A stretch of DNA of 11,910 nt, from UHGV virus genome UHGV-0361702, one strand, 5' to 3'. Below are positions 834 through 9,981 of the stretch, piece after piece (the first letter of the stretch is position 1; every line of letters begins with the position of its first letter). The notes under the pieces are model-generated. The model was not told where the DNA came from and did no database searches. It worked only from the letters and a program-made list of their open reading frames with translations. The translations under genes were made by a program, and so were the position numbers. The DNA comes from a virus.

Positions 834-2210
834 TCATACGTCCGCCCCTTGTGCATATCGTCTGCCACGCGCAGCAGGCGCATTTGATGCTGTGCAAATC
901 TGTCTGGCTTCATCCTGGTCACATGCAACAAAGTGTCCGTTGCAGAACCGCTGGTAAACCGTACCAAGTGAGCCAAAACGGTTTTTCGTCACAATGATTT
1001 CAGCAAATGGCGCGGCGCTACTGTTCTCGTCATATACCGCTTCCCGATAGAGCATGATGATTGAGTCTGCGTCCTGTTCAATGCTTCCTGAATCACGCAA
1101 ATCTGCGTTTGTCGGGCGTTTGTTTGGTCGCTTCTCAACATCGCGTGAAAGCTGACTTAGGGAGATAACAGGCGTTTTCAGGTCTTTCGCCATCGCCTTA
1201 AGGCTTCCTGAGATGTGGGCAATTGCGAGGTCGTTGCGATCTGCTTTCGGCTTCTCAATCAGGCCAAGATAATCCGCCATGATGAGTGACAGGTTTGGAT
1301 TTTCCTGTTTGTGTCGTTCTGCGATTGAGCGTATTTCTTCGACCGATAACCGCGAGGCATCGACTACCCATACATCCAAATCTGCAAGCTGACTCATGCC
1401 GTTAGCAACACGCGCCCAGCCTTCGTCATCCATCGATGCAGGATTTCGCAGTACGCTAACCGACATCCTCCCGGCGTTGGCAATGCTTCGCTCTGCAATC
1501 TGCAATGCGCTCATTTCCATTGAGAAAATCAATACCCCGCGCCGGACGTCAGAACCAGGAATAACGCGGCTTGCAACGCCTTCGGCAATCTTCAGCGCCA
1601 GCTCGGTTTTCCCCATACCAGGACGAGCAGCGATTATCACCAGGTCTTCTGCGTTCATCCCTCCGGTGATGGCATCAAGTTCTTCGATTCCGGTCTTCAG
1701 GGTATCGGACTCTTCTCCGTTCCTCAGACGCCTGTCAAGCGTGTCAGTGTAGTCAGTAATGATTTCCCCTAACCGTACAGGTTTAACCTCGTCACGGGGC
1801 TTTCTGATGGCTGAAAGACGCTTTACAAGCTCATCCATCGCCTGACTCGATGCGTCGATGGTTCCGCTCTGAATTGGTTCACGCATTTCATCCATGATTT
1901 CCAGCACCAGACGGCGGTGATAGTTATCCGCGACCATTCCGGCATATCCCTTCAGGTTTGCGGCACTCGGGCAGTTTTTGCTGGTCATCAGGATTGCGGT
2001 GAAATGCTCCTCTCCGCACGCCTCGGCAACCATCAGCGCGTCGATTAGGTTTCTGTTTCTCGCCTGCTTGCGAATAACCTCGAAGGCTTTCCGGTAGAGC
2101 GGAATTGAAAACGCTTCCGGCTCCAGCGTTGCAAGAACGTCACTGGCGGTTGGAGTTAATCCACCAATCAGCAGGCCACCGATAACGCTCGCTTCGATAT
2201 CCTGTCTCAT
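834..2210 (-). CDS. DnaB-family replicative DNA helicase (P22 gene 12-like)
   Basis: 458-aa ORF with Walker A motif GMGKT ([15 protein letters not shown]) and overall DnaB-like organisation; start overlaps the stop of the upstream O-like gene; sits where lambdoid phages place P or gene 12. Confidence 0.9.
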
Positions 2211-3154
2211 GCAATCCCCCTGTCTGCAAACTTCCCTTCCCGAACTCCCGTTAACGAGTCTTCTCTCAGCAGGTAATCAAAATCAGCCGTCCAGCCCGTG
2301 TCGTTGTCTCCGAAGTAAAACGGCTTGGCCTGATGCACAAACGCCCTGACATACGCTCTGAAACCGTCCACGTTTGGCGTTTTCAGTTGCGGGATGATTT
2401 TCTTCAGGCGGCGTTTTCGTTTCTCGTTGACCGCAACAGCGTGTGGCAGTCTGTCACCGACTTCGGTGTTGTAGGCGTTCAGGAAGGATTCGTAGTCGAT
2501 TCGTTCTGCCTTGCGACGTTCAGGTTTAACCTGCCCATCGCCTCCCCCATTGGGGGGTAGGGGGGTATTATTTATATTCTTGTTAATACCTTCTTGTTCA
2601 TGATGTGCGGTTGTTTGTGCGGCTTCATGTGCGCTTTCATGTGCGGCATGTACGCTGAAAGCCGCGCTATTGCTGGCTTCATCATGTGCGGCATCATGTG
2701 CGGTTGTTTGTGCGGCTTCATGTGCGGGTAAATTGTCCATTTTTTGAGCATATTCATGGTAATTTGTGATGGTTATCACACGGCCTTTTTGCTTCTCTCC
2801 ATCAATGGAGATCATCCCCTCTTTCACAAAAACCTGAAGCATCCGCTCAACCTGATCACGGCTTGCTGGCTTGCCATGTCTGTCGCATAACTGAAGACCT
2901 AAATCAGCTGCTGTCACAACCAGTTGACCGGGTTGCAGATGCCATTCATGACCTTTGAAATTCGCTTTGTATGGCTTTCTGGCGGCATTCAGGAGAAGGT
3001 TTTCCCACAGGGTGCGAAGATAAACATCTTTCGCCCATGACTGTTTCAGAATGCTCCGGTACAACGGAATGTAACCAGTTTTCTGGTTCTCCATCCTGTT
3101 GCTCCTGCGCTCGTGTGCGGCGCTGAAATCGTAGATTTTTGCTGTATTGCTCAT
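2207..3154 (-). CDS. replication initiator protein (lambda O / P22 gp18-like) with internal origin iterons
   Basis: 315-aa ORF starting MSNTAKI (lambda O starts MTNTAKI), immediately upstream of the helicase gene. The central linker is a His/Ala-rich repeat ([17 protein letters not shown]...) encoded by the iteron DNA. SD-like GGCAGGTAG precedes ATG at 3154. Confidence 0.75.
2598..2728. repeat. origin of replication iterons (about 8 copies of an 11-12 bp unit CATGTGCGG) inside the O-like gene, flanked by an AT-rich segment at 2565-2600
   Basis: Direct repeats ending at 2610, 2622, 2634, 2647, 2692, 2703, 2715, 2727 (gatgtgcgg / tttgtgcgg / catgtgcgg variants). A 31-bp exact direct repeat ATGTGCGGTTGTTTGTGCGGCTTCATGTGCG occurs at 2603-2633 and 2696-2726. 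AT-rich stretch follows in gene orientation, as in lambda ori. Confidence 0.6.
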
Positions 3155-5928: not shown

Positions 5929-6351
5929 ATGGAAGAACAAGCAAACAAGATTCTCGTAGAACTTCTGCAAAAAGCCAGTAATGGAATAGACGCGGCTGTT
6001 TCATTTAGCCAGGCACAGATTCCTGATGTTGTTCGTCAGTTGCTAACATGGAGTTTTGTCCATAGCGCACTTTTCCAAGTGGCTGGGTTGTTGCTTTTAA
6101 TTGCAGCAATGAAACTTCCTAGTTTTGCAAGAACGGCAAGAAATAATGGCGAGAGATGGACGTCTTTAGATGGATGTCCAAACGATAGATATTTTATATC
6201 TTCGTTTTATTACGATATATGCACTGTATTTGCTCCTATATTTGGCTCAATTATTGGCGTTTTAATTATTGCCTTCAATTTCGAATGGTTGAAGATTTGG
6301 CTTGCACCTAAGTTATTCCTAATTGAATATGCAGCATCATTGGTTAAGTAA
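5929..6351 (+). CDS. hypothetical inner-membrane protein (140 aa, 2-3 predicted TM helices)
   Basis: ATG preceded by AAGGTGATAT; hydrophobic segments LLTWSFVHSALFQVAGLLLLIAAM and ICTVFAPIFGSIIGVLIIAF; flanked by terminator hairpins on both sides. Not recognised as SieB or RexB from memory. Confidence 0.6.
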   Translation: MEEQANKILVELLQKASNGIDAAVSFSQAQIPDVVRQLLTWSFVHSALFQVAGLLLLIAAMKLPSFARTARNNGERWTSLDGCPNDRYFISSFYYDICTVFAPIFGSIIGVLIIAFNFEWLKIWLAPKLFLIEYAASLVK

Positions 6352-6381: not shown

Positions 6382-6500
6382 GGCATAAACAACAGAATAA
6401 ACACTGCACTGTGTATTCATTCCAACGAGTGAATACACGGAGCAATGTCGCTCGTAACTAAACAGGAGCCGACTTGTTCTGATTGTTGGAAATCTTCTTT

Positions 6501-6528
6501 GCCCTCCAGTGTGAGGGCAATTTTTTTT
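6501..6528 (+). terminator. second intrinsic terminator, 13 nt upstream of the next gene
   Basis: GCCCTC-cagtgt-GAGGGC followed by AATTTTTTTT; the downstream gene must depend on N-antiterminated readthrough. Confidence 0.55.
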
Positions 6529-6540
6529 GATGGAGGATAT

Positions 6541-6891
6541 ATGAGTGAAGTAACAGATTTAGTTGTTATTGAAAAAGCAAATGCAATGACTGTATTTCAG
6601 TCTGCCGACCAGATTGAAGAAATTCTCCAAAAGGTTGAACGTGAAGTTATGTCATTTGTGCCTGATATCACAACGGCAAAGGGCAGAAAGGAGATCGCTT
6701 CTCTGGCGTATAAAGTTGCGCAGACGAAAACATATCTCGATGGTCTTGGCAAAGACCTTGTTGCTGAACTGAAGGAAATTCCAAAGCTAATTGATGCCAA
6801 CCGCAAGACAGTGCGCGATCGCCTTGATGAACTGAAAGCCAAGGCGCGCCAGCCTCTTACTGATTATGAGGAAGAATCAGGCGCGGATTAA
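6541..6891 (+). CDS. hypothetical protein (116 aa); possibly the N-terminal part of a frame-disrupted or recoded larger gene
   Basis: SD GGAGG at 6532-6536 then ATG 6541 (the upstream ATG at 6445 would read through the terminator hairpin and has a badly spaced SD). Ends ...KARQPLTDYEEESGAD, overlapping the next ORF by 26 nt in the +1 frame. Confidence 0.55.
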   Translation: MSEVTDLVVIEKANAMTVFQSADQIEEILQKVEREVMSFVPDITTAKGRKEIASLAYKVAQTKTYLDGLGKDLVAELKEIPKLIDANRKTVRDRLDELKAKARQPLTDYEEESGAD

Positions 6892-7510
6892 AGCCGAAGA
6901 AGAAGCTAAGGCAGCAGCTGAAGCTCTCGCAAAGCAAATTGAGTCTGACCATGAAATAGCGATTTTGATGGATCGCGAATTTGACCGCCAAAGAGAAGAG
7001 GCAAGACTCAAAGCGGAGCAGGAAAAGCGAGAGCATGAAGAACGATTAAAAAGAGAAGCTGAAGAGAAAGCCAGAGCAGAAGCCGAAGCAAAGGCAAAAG
7101 CCGAAATTGAAGCAGCAGCAAGGCGAGAAGCAGAAGCTAAGGCCGCAGCGGAACGTGCAGAGCGTGAACGCATTGAAGCCGAGCAACGAGCACAGCGCGA
7201 AGCAAAAGAGGCAGCAGAACGAGCTGAAAGAGAAAAGCAGGCAGCAATTGAAGCAGAACGCAGAAAAGCACAGGAGGAGGCTGAACGAATCCGTCGCGAG
7301 GCTGAAGCAAAAGAGCAAGCCAGAATAGCAGAAGAAAAAAGAATCAAGGACGAAGAAGAGCGTAGAGCAAAGGATAAAGCTCACCGGAAAGAAGTAAATA
7401 ACAAAATACTTGCTGACCTTATCAAGGTTGGCGCATCAGAAGATGTTGCTAAAAATATCATAACAGCCATCGTAAAAGGCGAAGTATTCGCAACAAAAAT
7501 AACCTACTAA
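6866..7510 (+). CDS. hypothetical highly charged E/R/K/A-rich helical protein (214 aa as annotated); likely the continuation of the preceding ORF
   Basis: No SD before ATG 6866, and its frame is open from 6836; about 130 residues of ER/K-rich low-complexity sequence (REAEEKARAEAEAKAKAEIEAAARREAEAK...) followed by a short C-terminal domain (ILADLIKVGASEDVAKNIITAIVKGEVFATKITY). Confidence 0.5.
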   Translation: MRKNQARIKAEEEAKAAAEALAKQIESDHEIAILMDREFDRQREEARLKAEQEKREHEERLKREAEEKARAEAEAKAKAEIEAAARREAEAKAAAERAERERIEAEQRAQREAKEAAERAEREKQAAIEAERRKAQEEAERIRREAEAKEQARIAEEKRIKDEEERRAKDKAHRKEVNNKILADLIKVGASEDVAKNIITAIVKGEVFATKITY

Positions 7511-7534
7511 TAAAACCAACATAAGGAACCACCC

Positions 7535-7666
7535 ATGATTTACGCAATCGCGGGAGGCGCTCGCATGGGTGCCTTCCAACTAAATGAATCTTTACTTGAA
7601 CGAATCACCCGTAAATTACGTGACGGATGGAAAAGAGTTGAGGTCTTATTATGCGCAATGAAATAG
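7535..7666 (+). CDS. cIII: CIII-like protein (FtsH/HflB inhibitor)
   Basis: 43 aa, MIYAIAGG...NESLLERITRKLRDGWKR; the core matches lambda CIII (ESLLERITRKLRDGWKR) as remembered; SD AAGGA 6 nt upstream. Confidence 0.8.
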   Translation: MIYAIAGGARMGAFQLNESLLERITRKLRDGWKRVEVLLCAMK

Positions 7667-7803
7667 CCATCAATCACCAGATGCTTCGTGCTGCACAGAA
7701 CAAAGCAGTAATAGCCAGATTTATTGGTGATTCCAAAATGTGGCTTGAAGCAAATAAAGCGATGAAATCAGCTATCAACCTTCCGTGGTATCGCAGGAAA
7801 TGA
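7651..7803 (+). CDS. kil: Kil-like small protein (host cell-division inhibitor)
   Basis: 50 aa; immediately downstream of and overlapping cIII, as in lambda; motif ARFIGDSKMW resembles the lambda Kil segment ATFIGDEKM as I recall it. Identity partly positional. Confidence 0.55.
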   Translation: MRNEIAINHQMLRAAQNKAVIARFIGDSKMWLEANKAMKSAINLPWYRRK

Positions 7804-7958
7804 GTTTTACAGATAACTGGTCAGACGAAGAATTCATTCGTCAGATTAAAGAATTAATCGGTAACGAAGGAGATATTCATGTCACTTGCAACCACAGTGA
7901 AGGAGAGCAAGTTACAGAGACGCATGTACACGCAGAAAGCTCTCTGGTATCGCCATAA
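7800..7958 (+). CDS. hypothetical small acidic protein (52 aa)
   Basis: ATGA overlap with kil stop; AGGA just upstream; MSFTDNWSDEEFIRQIKELIGNEGD... The position upstream of erf is where P22 has arf, but no sequence support. Confidence 0.4.
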   Translation: MSFTDNWSDEEFIRQIKELIGNEGDIHVTCNHSEGEQVTETHVHAESSLVSP

Positions 7959-8059
7959 TGGTGACCGCGAAGGAATGCGGGTATGCCTTAATTTGTCCCG
8001 AGTCGAAGTATTAAATCAGCGTTATTTCCTTGGGCCGTGTCCATTCTGAGAGCAATCAT

Positions 8060-8665
8060 ATGAGCAAAGAATTTTACGCAAGACTGGCAGCTATTCAGGA
8101 GAATCTGAACGCGCCAAAGAATCAGTACAACTCATTCGGCAAATATAAATACAGAAGCTGCGAAGATATTCTTGAAGGCGTTAAGCCGTTACTGAACGGT
8201 CTGTTTTTATCAATCAGCGATGAAGTTGTGTTGATTGGTGATCGGTATTACGTGAAAGCCACGGCAACTATTACCGATGGCGAAAACAGTCATACGGCAA
8301 CCGCTCTTGCACGAGAGGAAGAAAGCAAGAAAGGAATGGATTCTGCACAAGTTACGGGAGCTACAAGCTCTTATGCACGCAAGTATTGCCTCAATGGTTT
8401 GTTCGGCATTGATGATGCGAAAGATGCAGATACAGACGAGCATAAACATCAGCAGAACGCAGCAGCAAAGCAATCAAAACCATCACTTACACCTGAACAG
8501 GTTCTAAAAGCATTCACTGACGCAGCAATGCAGAAAAACACCGTAGAAGAGCTTAAACAGGCGTTCGCCAAAGCGTGGAAGATGCTCGAAGGGACGCCGG
8601 AGCAGCACAAAGCGCAGGACGTTTACAACATCAGACGAGACGAATTAGAAGGGGCAACTGCTTAA
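8060..8665 (+). CDS. erf: Erf-family single-strand annealing recombinase (P22 Erf-like)
   Basis: 201 aa starting MSKEFYARLAAIQENLNAPKNQYNSFGKYKYRSCEDILEGVKPLL..., which closely matches the P22 Erf N-terminal domain as remembered. The first ATG of the six-frame ORF (8030) is less likely than 8060. Confidence 0.85.
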   Translation: MSKEFYARLAAIQENLNAPKNQYNSFGKYKYRSCEDILEGVKPLLNGLFLSISDEVVLIGDRYYVKATATITDGENSHTATALAREEESKKGMDSAQVTGATSSYARKYCLNGLFGIDDAKDADTDEHKHQQNAAAKQSKPSLTPEQVLKAFTDAAMQKNTVEELKQAFAKAWKMLEGTPEQHKAQDVYNIRRDELEGATA

Positions 8666-9048
8666 TGGCACATTCGATTACAGTAAGACTAAACAAACCC
8701 GCAAGAGAGTTTCAGGGCGGGGAAAATATCGGATTCAACATCCGTGCTGGCGTTCAGTATTACGATCGCCAGACAAAAAAGAAAGAATGGACAAACTACA
8801 GCGCCGTTGTATTTGCCAAGCCGGGAGCGCAAGCGGATTACTATCGTAGCGTTCTGGTTGAAGGAGGCATTGTAGAAATTACCGGAGAAAACATCAGGGT
8901 TGATGTTTATCAGGGGCAAAATGGTCAATCAATCACTCTTGAATTACTGAATGCAAAGATTGGATTTGCAACTTCAGGAAACAGCCAACAGCAGCAAAGT
9001 AGCAATCATCAAAATAATCCTGAATACGACGATTCCATCCCATTCTGA
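8665..9048 (+). CDS. phage SSB-like single-stranded DNA-binding protein (short OB-fold with C-terminal acidic tail)
   Basis: 127 aa ending ...NNPEYDDSIPF, the hallmark SSB C-terminal tail (E. coli SSB ends DDDIPF); TAATG overlap with erf stop. Confidence 0.75.
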   Translation: MAHSITVRLNKPAREFQGGENIGFNIRAGVQYYDRQTKKKEWTNYSAVVFAKPGAQADYYRSVLVEGGIVEITGENIRVDVYQGQNGQSITLELLNAKIGFATSGNSQQQQSSNHQNNPEYDDSIPF

Positions 9049-9368: not shown

Positions 9369-9462
9369 GGAATTTACCATGAGAGGACTTGCTTAAGAGA
9401 AAGAGTTTCGGTTCTGTTAATGACAACAAATATCTGAATGCGATGTGGCGGAGTGGGAAGAA

Positions 9463-9981
9463 ATGAAACAAATGTCACTAATTGAGATGGATGGTTTTCT
9501 GAAAGGTAAATGCATCCCAAGTGATTTAAAGGTTAACGAAACAAACGCTGAATACCTTGTCCGTAAGTTCGGTGAACTTGAATCAAAACTGGAAACGGCG
9601 TTGCGGGAGTGTAGTTCTGCTGGAATCACGATTGATAACCTTGAGGCTAAATGCGCGAAGATGGCTGCTGAAAATACCTCACTTAAGCAATCTGAGAAGG
9701 AATTTAATGACTTTTGTCGTGAGGAGTTTAGCGAATGGGAAGATGATGTTACTGAAACCCCAGCCACCGATGCTTTTCTGGCTGAAGTGCGGGCGCAGGG
9801 GGTGGATGCTGCTATAGAAGCTGCAAAAAATCTGGTGGCCCAAGAATATGAGTATAAGGATTTCAAAGCGGCGCAGAGTGATTGCTGTATGCACCCTGGT
9901 TCAGACCTGGTAGGGAAGGTTGAAATGACTGAGTGGTTAGTTGACTTTGCTGCCCAGCTTCGCAAAGGAGGCAACCAGTGA
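9463..9981 (+). CDS. hypothetical protein (172 aa), predicted coiled-coil
   Basis: ATG 9463 with GGAG 9 nt upstream (the six-frame ORF begins at GTG 9445); stop overlaps the next start (GTGA). Confidence 0.55.
   Translation: MKQMSLIEMDGFLKGKCIPSDLKVNETNAEYLVRKFGELESKLETALRECSSAGITIDNLEAKCAKMAAENTSLKQSEKEFNDFCREEFSEWEDDVTETPATDAFLAEVRAQGVDAAIEAAKNLVAQEYEYKDFKAAQSDCCMHPGSDLVGKVEMTEWLVDFAAQLRKGGNQ

Follow-up and report, generated by a model that had tools for sequence, protein, structure and literature searches.

A single inserted base very probably inactivates an accessory early-left gene of the P22-like prophage CUS-3

Introduction

Do two overlapping reading frames in the early-left (pL) operon of a P22-like lambdoid prophage stand for two proteins, for one protein made by recoding, or for the remains of one gene? 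The question is raised by an 11,910-nucleotide stretch of the virus genome UHGV-0361702 (the window, throughout). In an initial annotation, made from the letters of the window and a list of its open reading frames, a short ORF that ends at 6891 was seen to overlap, in the +1 frame, a 214-aa ORF rich in E, R and K. The pair was taken for one interrupted gene, and three causes were proposed: a genuine frameshift mutation that leaves a pseudogene, a sequencing or assembly indel, or programmed +1 recoding. Here we describe the comparison of this locus with its relatives, the explanation that we favour, and what can be said of the intact protein.

Results

Two open reading frames share a single start signal

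The elements of the locus on which the following analysis draws are these:

6499–6528, plus strand: intrinsic terminator (stem-loop and T run) just upstream of the gene; site 6499–6520, then TTTTTTTT
6532–6537, plus strand: Shine–Dalgarno sequence GGAGGA of the true start, ATG 6541 (anti-SD duplex energy −9.3 kcal/mol)
6541–7510, plus strand: the whole frameshifted pseudogene, 970 nt, an orthologue of Sf6 gene 33 and a member of phrog_1376; RefSeq UTI89_RS13095 has the same span
6541–6891, plus strand: ORF1, the 5′ part, with native residues 1–112, then the frameshift-derived SGAD, then TAA (translation; phrog_1376 match)
6836–6891, plus strand: stretch in which both frames are open, from after TGA 6833–6835 in the ORF2 frame to TAA 6889–6891 in the ORF1 frame
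6866–7510, plus strand: ORF2, the 3′ part, 214 aa, an E/R/K/A-rich long helix and a C-terminal domain of about 45 aa (ORF list; phrog_1376 match)
6877, plus strand: the lesion, one inserted T that separates codons E112 and Q113 of the intact protein (located by aligning the DNA with Sf6 and phiv205-1)

We found that ORF1 begins at ATG 6541, which is also the annotated start in CUS-3, Sf6 and UTI89, and that its translation ends in ...LTDYEEESGAD, just as first read. The +1 frame is open from 6836 and continues into the ER/K-rich ORF2, again as first described, and the two frames overlap by 56 nt in a stretch that is neither a homopolymer nor a simple repeat. The remark that ORF2 had no proper start was borne out as well: ATG 6866 has no Shine–Dalgarno sequence (anti-SD duplex energy +0.6 kcal/mol, against −9.3 kcal/mol at the ORF1 start), and neither do the next starts in that frame, TTG 6965 and ATG 6968. 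ATG 6866 is fortuitous, lying out of frame in intact alleles (GAT TAT GAG), and the native reading frame restarts at 6878 (Q113), inside ORF2.

The bases of Sf6 homologous to the upstream terminator are annotated as 'terminator, homology to phage lambda tL2A'. In the T tract of this terminator (6521–6528, with the extra T noted at 6521), CUS-3, UTI89 and phiv205-1 have one T more than Sf6, a harmless polymorphism that accounts for the match lengths of 1049, 1050 and 1051 nt obtained for the region.

The two frames are one gene with one extra base

Over the 1051 nt around the gene, the window showed 100% identity to phage CUS-3 (CP000711) and also to the prophages of Escherichia coli UTI89, NU14, IHE3034, APEC O18, PMV-1, UM146 and others. 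In Sf6, gene 33 (AAQ12223.1) is a single CDS of 969 nt and 322 aa; it occupies the same place in the same operon (ral, gene 34, terminator tL2, gene 33, cIII, kil, erf) and is 98.5% identical to the window gene in DNA. When the DNA was aligned with that of Sf6 and phiv205-1, both in pairs and together, the sole frame-changing difference from Sf6 within the gene proved to be an extra T at 6877 (GAAGAA-T-CAGG in the window, GAGGAA-CAGG in Sf6), through which the window allele, unlike the single ORF of Sf6, falls into two. Alignment with intact homologues, which the initial annotation had proposed as a means of locating the indel, thus placed it at 6877.

When T6877 was deleted in silico, a 969-nt ORF resulted whose 322-aa product is 100% identical to Sf6 gp33; the repaired gene differs from Sf6 gene 33 at 13 codons, 13 of them synonymous and 0 non-synonymous. 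Residues 1–112 of ORF1 are 100% identical to residues 1–112 of gp33. Both parts also match the same family profile, ORF1 at phrog_1376 positions 1–114 (E = 2.3e-52) and ORF2 at positions 161–362 (E = 2.7e-52), which together with the single ORF of Sf6 confirmed that the pair is one gene with a +1 shift. The expectation that a fusion would read smoothly was right in that the halves do join, but the proposed junction, ...EEESGA/RIKAEEE..., was a few residues off: SGAD is non-native, and the native protein runs ...DYEEE/QARIKAEEE.

Of the features that characterize phrog_1376, the N-terminal domain of about 112 aa, the charged helix and the C-terminal domain of about 45 aa (...I.Y) are present in the window, and the single uninterrupted ORF is not. 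As T6877 splits the gene, the locus is a pseudogene member of phrog_1376 rather than a functional one. The profiles of two further PHROGs families, phrog_17211 and phrog_21365, are 116 and 214 positions long, exactly as long as ORF1 and ORF2; most likely these families are artefacts of the same frameshift and should be merged with phrog_1376.

The extra base is real, inherited and derived

No assembly error is commoner than the single-base indel, and among the IMG/VR loci (described below) two different deletions of 1 nt sit in short A runs and may themselves be errors, so that the real DNA might likewise be imagined without the extra T. T6877, however, is flanked by A and C and lies in no homopolymer. 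Records of 38 complete E. coli genomes contain a perfect match to a 63-mer centred on it, and gene calls on 305 contigs (NCBI, JGI, ENA, Logan) include the identical 116-aa ORF1 product, SGAD tail and all. The same base is present in the separately deposited CUS-3 phage record, and the IMG/VR prophage L071 carries the identical 1-nt insertion. Carriers include UTI89, NU14, IHE3034, APEC O18, PMV-1, UM146, BEN2908 and FDAARGOS strains, and come from many laboratories and dates. Recurrence of one allele across so many independent assemblies excludes a sequencing error, and we put the probability that the indel arose in sequencing or assembly close to nil. The named carriers are, we presume, largely ST95 K1 strains.

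We then compared records without the extra base. The 63-mer matched 405 further E. coli records at 95–99% identity, and among the 60 matches listed all non-exact ones span 62 or 61 nt and lack the T; as the megablast word required 28 exact nucleotides, alleles with nearby SNPs (Sf6, for example) were missed and these counts of records without T are lower bounds. Among phage records T6877 occurs only in CUS-3; 22 are without it, and one of these is phiv205-1, the closest relative (99.4% identity across the region). In Enterobacter, Citrobacter, Cronobacter and Salmonella, homologues at 70–80% identity consist of one uninterrupted ORF (245–333 aa). Residues P105, T107, E110, E112, Q113, R115 and K117, near the junction, are invariant in cross-genus homologues. 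A shared two-ORF arrangement with a conserved start for ORF2, which the initial annotation had named as evidence against an interrupted gene, was thus not what the homologues displayed.

Since the T is absent from at least 405 other E. coli records, from 22 phage records and from cross-genus homologues, the insertion is derived. All 38 carrier records look like one clone-like allele and, on the sequences compared, T6877 is a derived mutation that has been inherited clonally within one CUS-3 sub-lineage. Intact orthologues exist, a single indel explains the difference from them, and the lesion is reproducible in independent assemblies, all of which is expected of a frameshift pseudogene. RefSeq already flags the locus as pseudo, 'frameshifted', in UTI89 (UTI89_RS13095, exactly 6541–7510) and likewise in BEN2908. 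With ordinary prophage pseudogenes caused by single-base frameshifts the window shares the one indel, clonal inheritance, a non-essential gene and the RefSeq flag; it differs from them in that T6877 lies outside a homopolymer, which is slightly unusual for a spontaneous indel and irrelevant to function. The locus is therefore an ordinary frameshift pseudogene, already so marked in public annotation, and not a novel one. Literature searches on CUS-3 with frameshift, and on a TolA-like lambdoid gene, returned no mention of it.

The overlap lacks the features of a recoding site

Programmed +1 ribosomal frameshifting, or another form of recoding, would restore the full-length protein, and several features of the locus could be read in this way: the frames overlap by 56 nt, ORF2 has no Shine–Dalgarno sequence of its own, and an SD-like GAGGA stands at 6868–6872, just upstream of the lesion. 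The release factor 2 gene, prfB, similarly combines a short overlap of the 0 and +1 frames with an upstream SD-like purine stretch. Unlike prfB, the window has neither a CUU-UGA-type shift site nor an in-frame stop at the shift position, and, in contrast to sites of the prfB type, its arrangement is not conserved, the relatives being single-frame.

Inspection of the codons at 6835–6891 argued further against recoding. The zero-frame codons of the overlap (AAA GCC AAG GCG CGC CAG CCT CTT ACT GAT TAT GAG GAA GAA TCA GGC GCG GAT TAA) include no known +1 site (CUU-UGA-like or CCC-UGA-like) and no rare or hungry A-site codon. For the native sequence to be produced, U6877 would have to be skipped from a P-site GAA, and the GAA tRNA cannot re-pair on AAU. 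The only site at which re-pairing is possible is AAA-G (6835–6838), and a slip there would replace the invariant ARQPLTDYEEE motif. In addition, the extra base is missing from every relative examined outside the lineage, the nearly identical phiv205-1 among them; the two-frame arrangement is not conserved among homologues, a single frame being present in at least 405 E. coli records, in 22 phage records and in every cross-genus homologue. As the site is specific to one lineage and its context is otherwise that of a single-frame ancestor, no recoding signal can have evolved, and we regard the proposal of programmed recoding as hardly credible. Two related processes were also considered and rejected: transcriptional slippage, as the site has no homopolymer and no A/T run, and phase variation, as it has no repeat. 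Of the three causes first proposed, it is the genuine frameshift mutation that agrees with the intact homologues, which differ from the window by exactly one T at 6877.

Other lesions occur in the same gene

The gene is disrupted in other ways elsewhere. T6877 is absent from phiv205-1 (L004), where the gene is interrupted by a nonsense mutation of separate origin, Q30* (CAA to TAA; 1629, corresponding to window 6627–6628). Eight complete APEC genomes have Q30* as well; in this sister prophage lineage the gene has thus been knocked out a second time, independently of T6877. Further IMG/VR loci from E. coli prophages (L010, L016, L067–L070, L072 and L073) carry lesions of other kinds: a stop codon, Q20* (CAG to TAG), the loss of 14 nt at nt 469, and the loss of a single nucleotide at nt 794 or at nt 897. 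The last two fall in short A runs and may be errors. In all, about 9 of the 80 IMG/VR loci are disrupted, counting the window's own allele in L071. Such repeated lesions fit a dispensable gene that is decaying in resident prophages.

A different kind of rearrangement was seen in P0121, a protein of 222 aa. Its N-domain is 100% identical to that of ORF1 and its C-terminus resembles the window ORF at 9445–9981 (...FLAEVRAQGV...QLRKGGNQ), suggesting that a deletion of about 2.5 kb, or a recombination, joined two genes in some prophage.

The other lesions bear on whether the split gene could still work, with the N-domain of ORF1 and a reinitiated ORF2 (helix and C-domain) acting as two subunits. 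ATG 6866 is 23 nt upstream of the ORF1 stop and within reach of a terminating ribosome, each half is still an uninterrupted ORF, and the halves of 116 and 214 aa have PHROGs families of their own, the split form being annotated in more than one genome. ORF2, however, has no Shine–Dalgarno sequence, and the other family members examined hold both domains on one chain across deep divergence. The carriers represent one near-identical allele, in which an intact ORF2 is to be expected simply because the lesion is recent. Finally, Q20* and Q30* are plainly null alleles in other lineages, which indicates that the gene is dispensable. A functional split gene is, in our judgement, very unlikely.

The intact protein is predicted to be one long helix with a small domain at each end

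We wanted to gain insight into the protein that the frameshift interrupts. A search with the N-domain alone hit 4849 clusters at 50% identity; for the 150 listed, the median length is 330 aa. In 15 of 15 sampled members an N-domain of about 112 aa is followed by a charged middle and a C-terminal domain of about 45 aa that ends in ...I.Y. The central 170–190 residues or so are rich in E, R, K and A and were predicted to form a single continuous helix with pLDDT above 90. The AlphaFold model of a natural 245-aa variant, built on an alignment of 106 sequences (mean pLDDT 89.5), consists of two short helices, one continuous helix at 46–218 and a small C-terminal element; in the model of the 322-aa form the helix spans 107–295. 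Between near-identical alleles, in-frame indels alter the length of the ER/K helix but leave both end domains unchanged, so that the whole proteins measure 245, 275, 290, 300, 306, 322 and 333 aa; the repetitive helix-coding sequence appears to be prone to slippage or recombination.

Searches with these sequences and models gave little beyond composition. In the PDB, the family profile matched nothing but Zuotin and myosin VI, both in their ER/K regions, a compositional likeness; the N-domain alone had no match among the sequences of solved structures, and fold searches returned generic long-helix matches only. Neither the intact protein, nor either half, nor any of ten distant members had a meaningful match in Pfam (none at E <= 0.1), NCBIfam or PADLOC. 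The ER/K single alpha-helix (SAH) spacers of myosin VI and Zuotin resemble the gp33 family in having a long uninterrupted E/R/K-rich helix, a likeness of composition and predicted structure that is compatible with either a monomeric SAH or a coiled coil.

PGAP names members of the family 'cell envelope biogenesis protein TolA' or 'coiled-coil domain-containing protein'. An identity with TolA was rejected, as no Pfam or NCBIfam TolA model matched and the predicted N-terminus consists of soluble helices and not of a membrane anchor. The name TolA most likely reflects nothing but a shared Ala/Glu/Lys-rich helix composition, and is probably misleading.

The gene lies in an operon with recombination genes

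The early-left operon of the window has the order N, ral, a 140-aa ORF, the terminator, the pseudogene, cIII, kil, two small ORFs, erf and an SSB-like gene, so that in the window (6541–9048) erf and the SSB-like gene follow after cIII and kil. Two distant homologues, at 45–46% identity, also stand a short way upstream of recombination modules, which differ in type: that of L081 (4001–5982) is followed by one small ORF and then an Erf-like gene, and that of L084 (4001–6802) directly precedes Gam-like, RecT/Bet-like SSAP and exonuclease genes. Placement near recombination genes, seen in these three loci and in the general gene order, may point to a functional link or may be mere lambdoid gene order. 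In phages of Firmicutes, uncharacterised DUF1351, DUF2483, Sipho_Gp157 and Mu Gam-like genes lie upstream of single-strand-annealing recombinases (PMC8093625). The DUF1351, DUF2483 and Gp157 genes described there are like the gp33 family in their position upstream of SSAPs, and no sequence relationship between them was detected.

Two other ORFs of the window were noted in passing. The 140-aa ORF at 5929–6351 (plus strand), which corresponds to Sf6 gene 34 and lies between ral and the tL2-like terminator, has a long hydrophobic stretch and gave no PADLOC match; its position is one that we take to correspond to that of superinfection-exclusion genes in other lambdoid phages. A putative O-like replication-initiator ORF at 2207–3154 (minus strand) contains repeated His/Ala-rich peptide units, a pattern that could arise if the gene, like lambda O, harbours origin iterons in the form of direct DNA repeats.

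Discussion

The comparisons above led us to the view that a genuine, vertically inherited 1-nt insertion, T6877, has with high probability inactivated an accessory gene of the early-left (pL) operon of the P22-like prophage CUS-3. Translation from ATG 6541 would yield 112 native residues, the tail SGAD and a stop at 6889–6891. The conserved N-terminal domain would in this way be cut off from the long ER/K-rich helix and from the conserved C-terminal domain. ORF2 would at best be made at a low level by termination–reinitiation, because it has no ribosome-binding site of its own, and the N-domain by itself might keep some residual function.

What is lost would depend on what the intact protein does. 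Its predicted form, a small conserved domain at each end of one very long helix, weakly suggests a tether or spacer that might act in an early recombination or host-takeover module and hold both end domains on one chain. Such a function would require a single polypeptide, so that, on the model, the split allele is most likely null. The gene appears to be dispensable and to lie where the prophage is kept silent by repression in lysogens, and because of this lesions in it would be expected to gather neutrally.

It is conceivable, and we think unlikely, that the gp33 family is instead an accessory recombination or host-takeover factor whose loss is favoured in long-resident prophages, or that the CUS-3 allele yields two working fragments. 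On the reading that we prefer, inactivation by T6877, K1 E. coli such as UTI89 and RS218 would hold, in their CUS-3 prophage, a dead copy of a dispensable early gene, and the 'hypothetical proteins' ABQ88428 and ABQ88429 of the CUS-3 GenBank record would be artefacts of one frameshift. The lesion itself would then carry little biological weight, and its only wider interest would lie in the function of the intact gp33 family.
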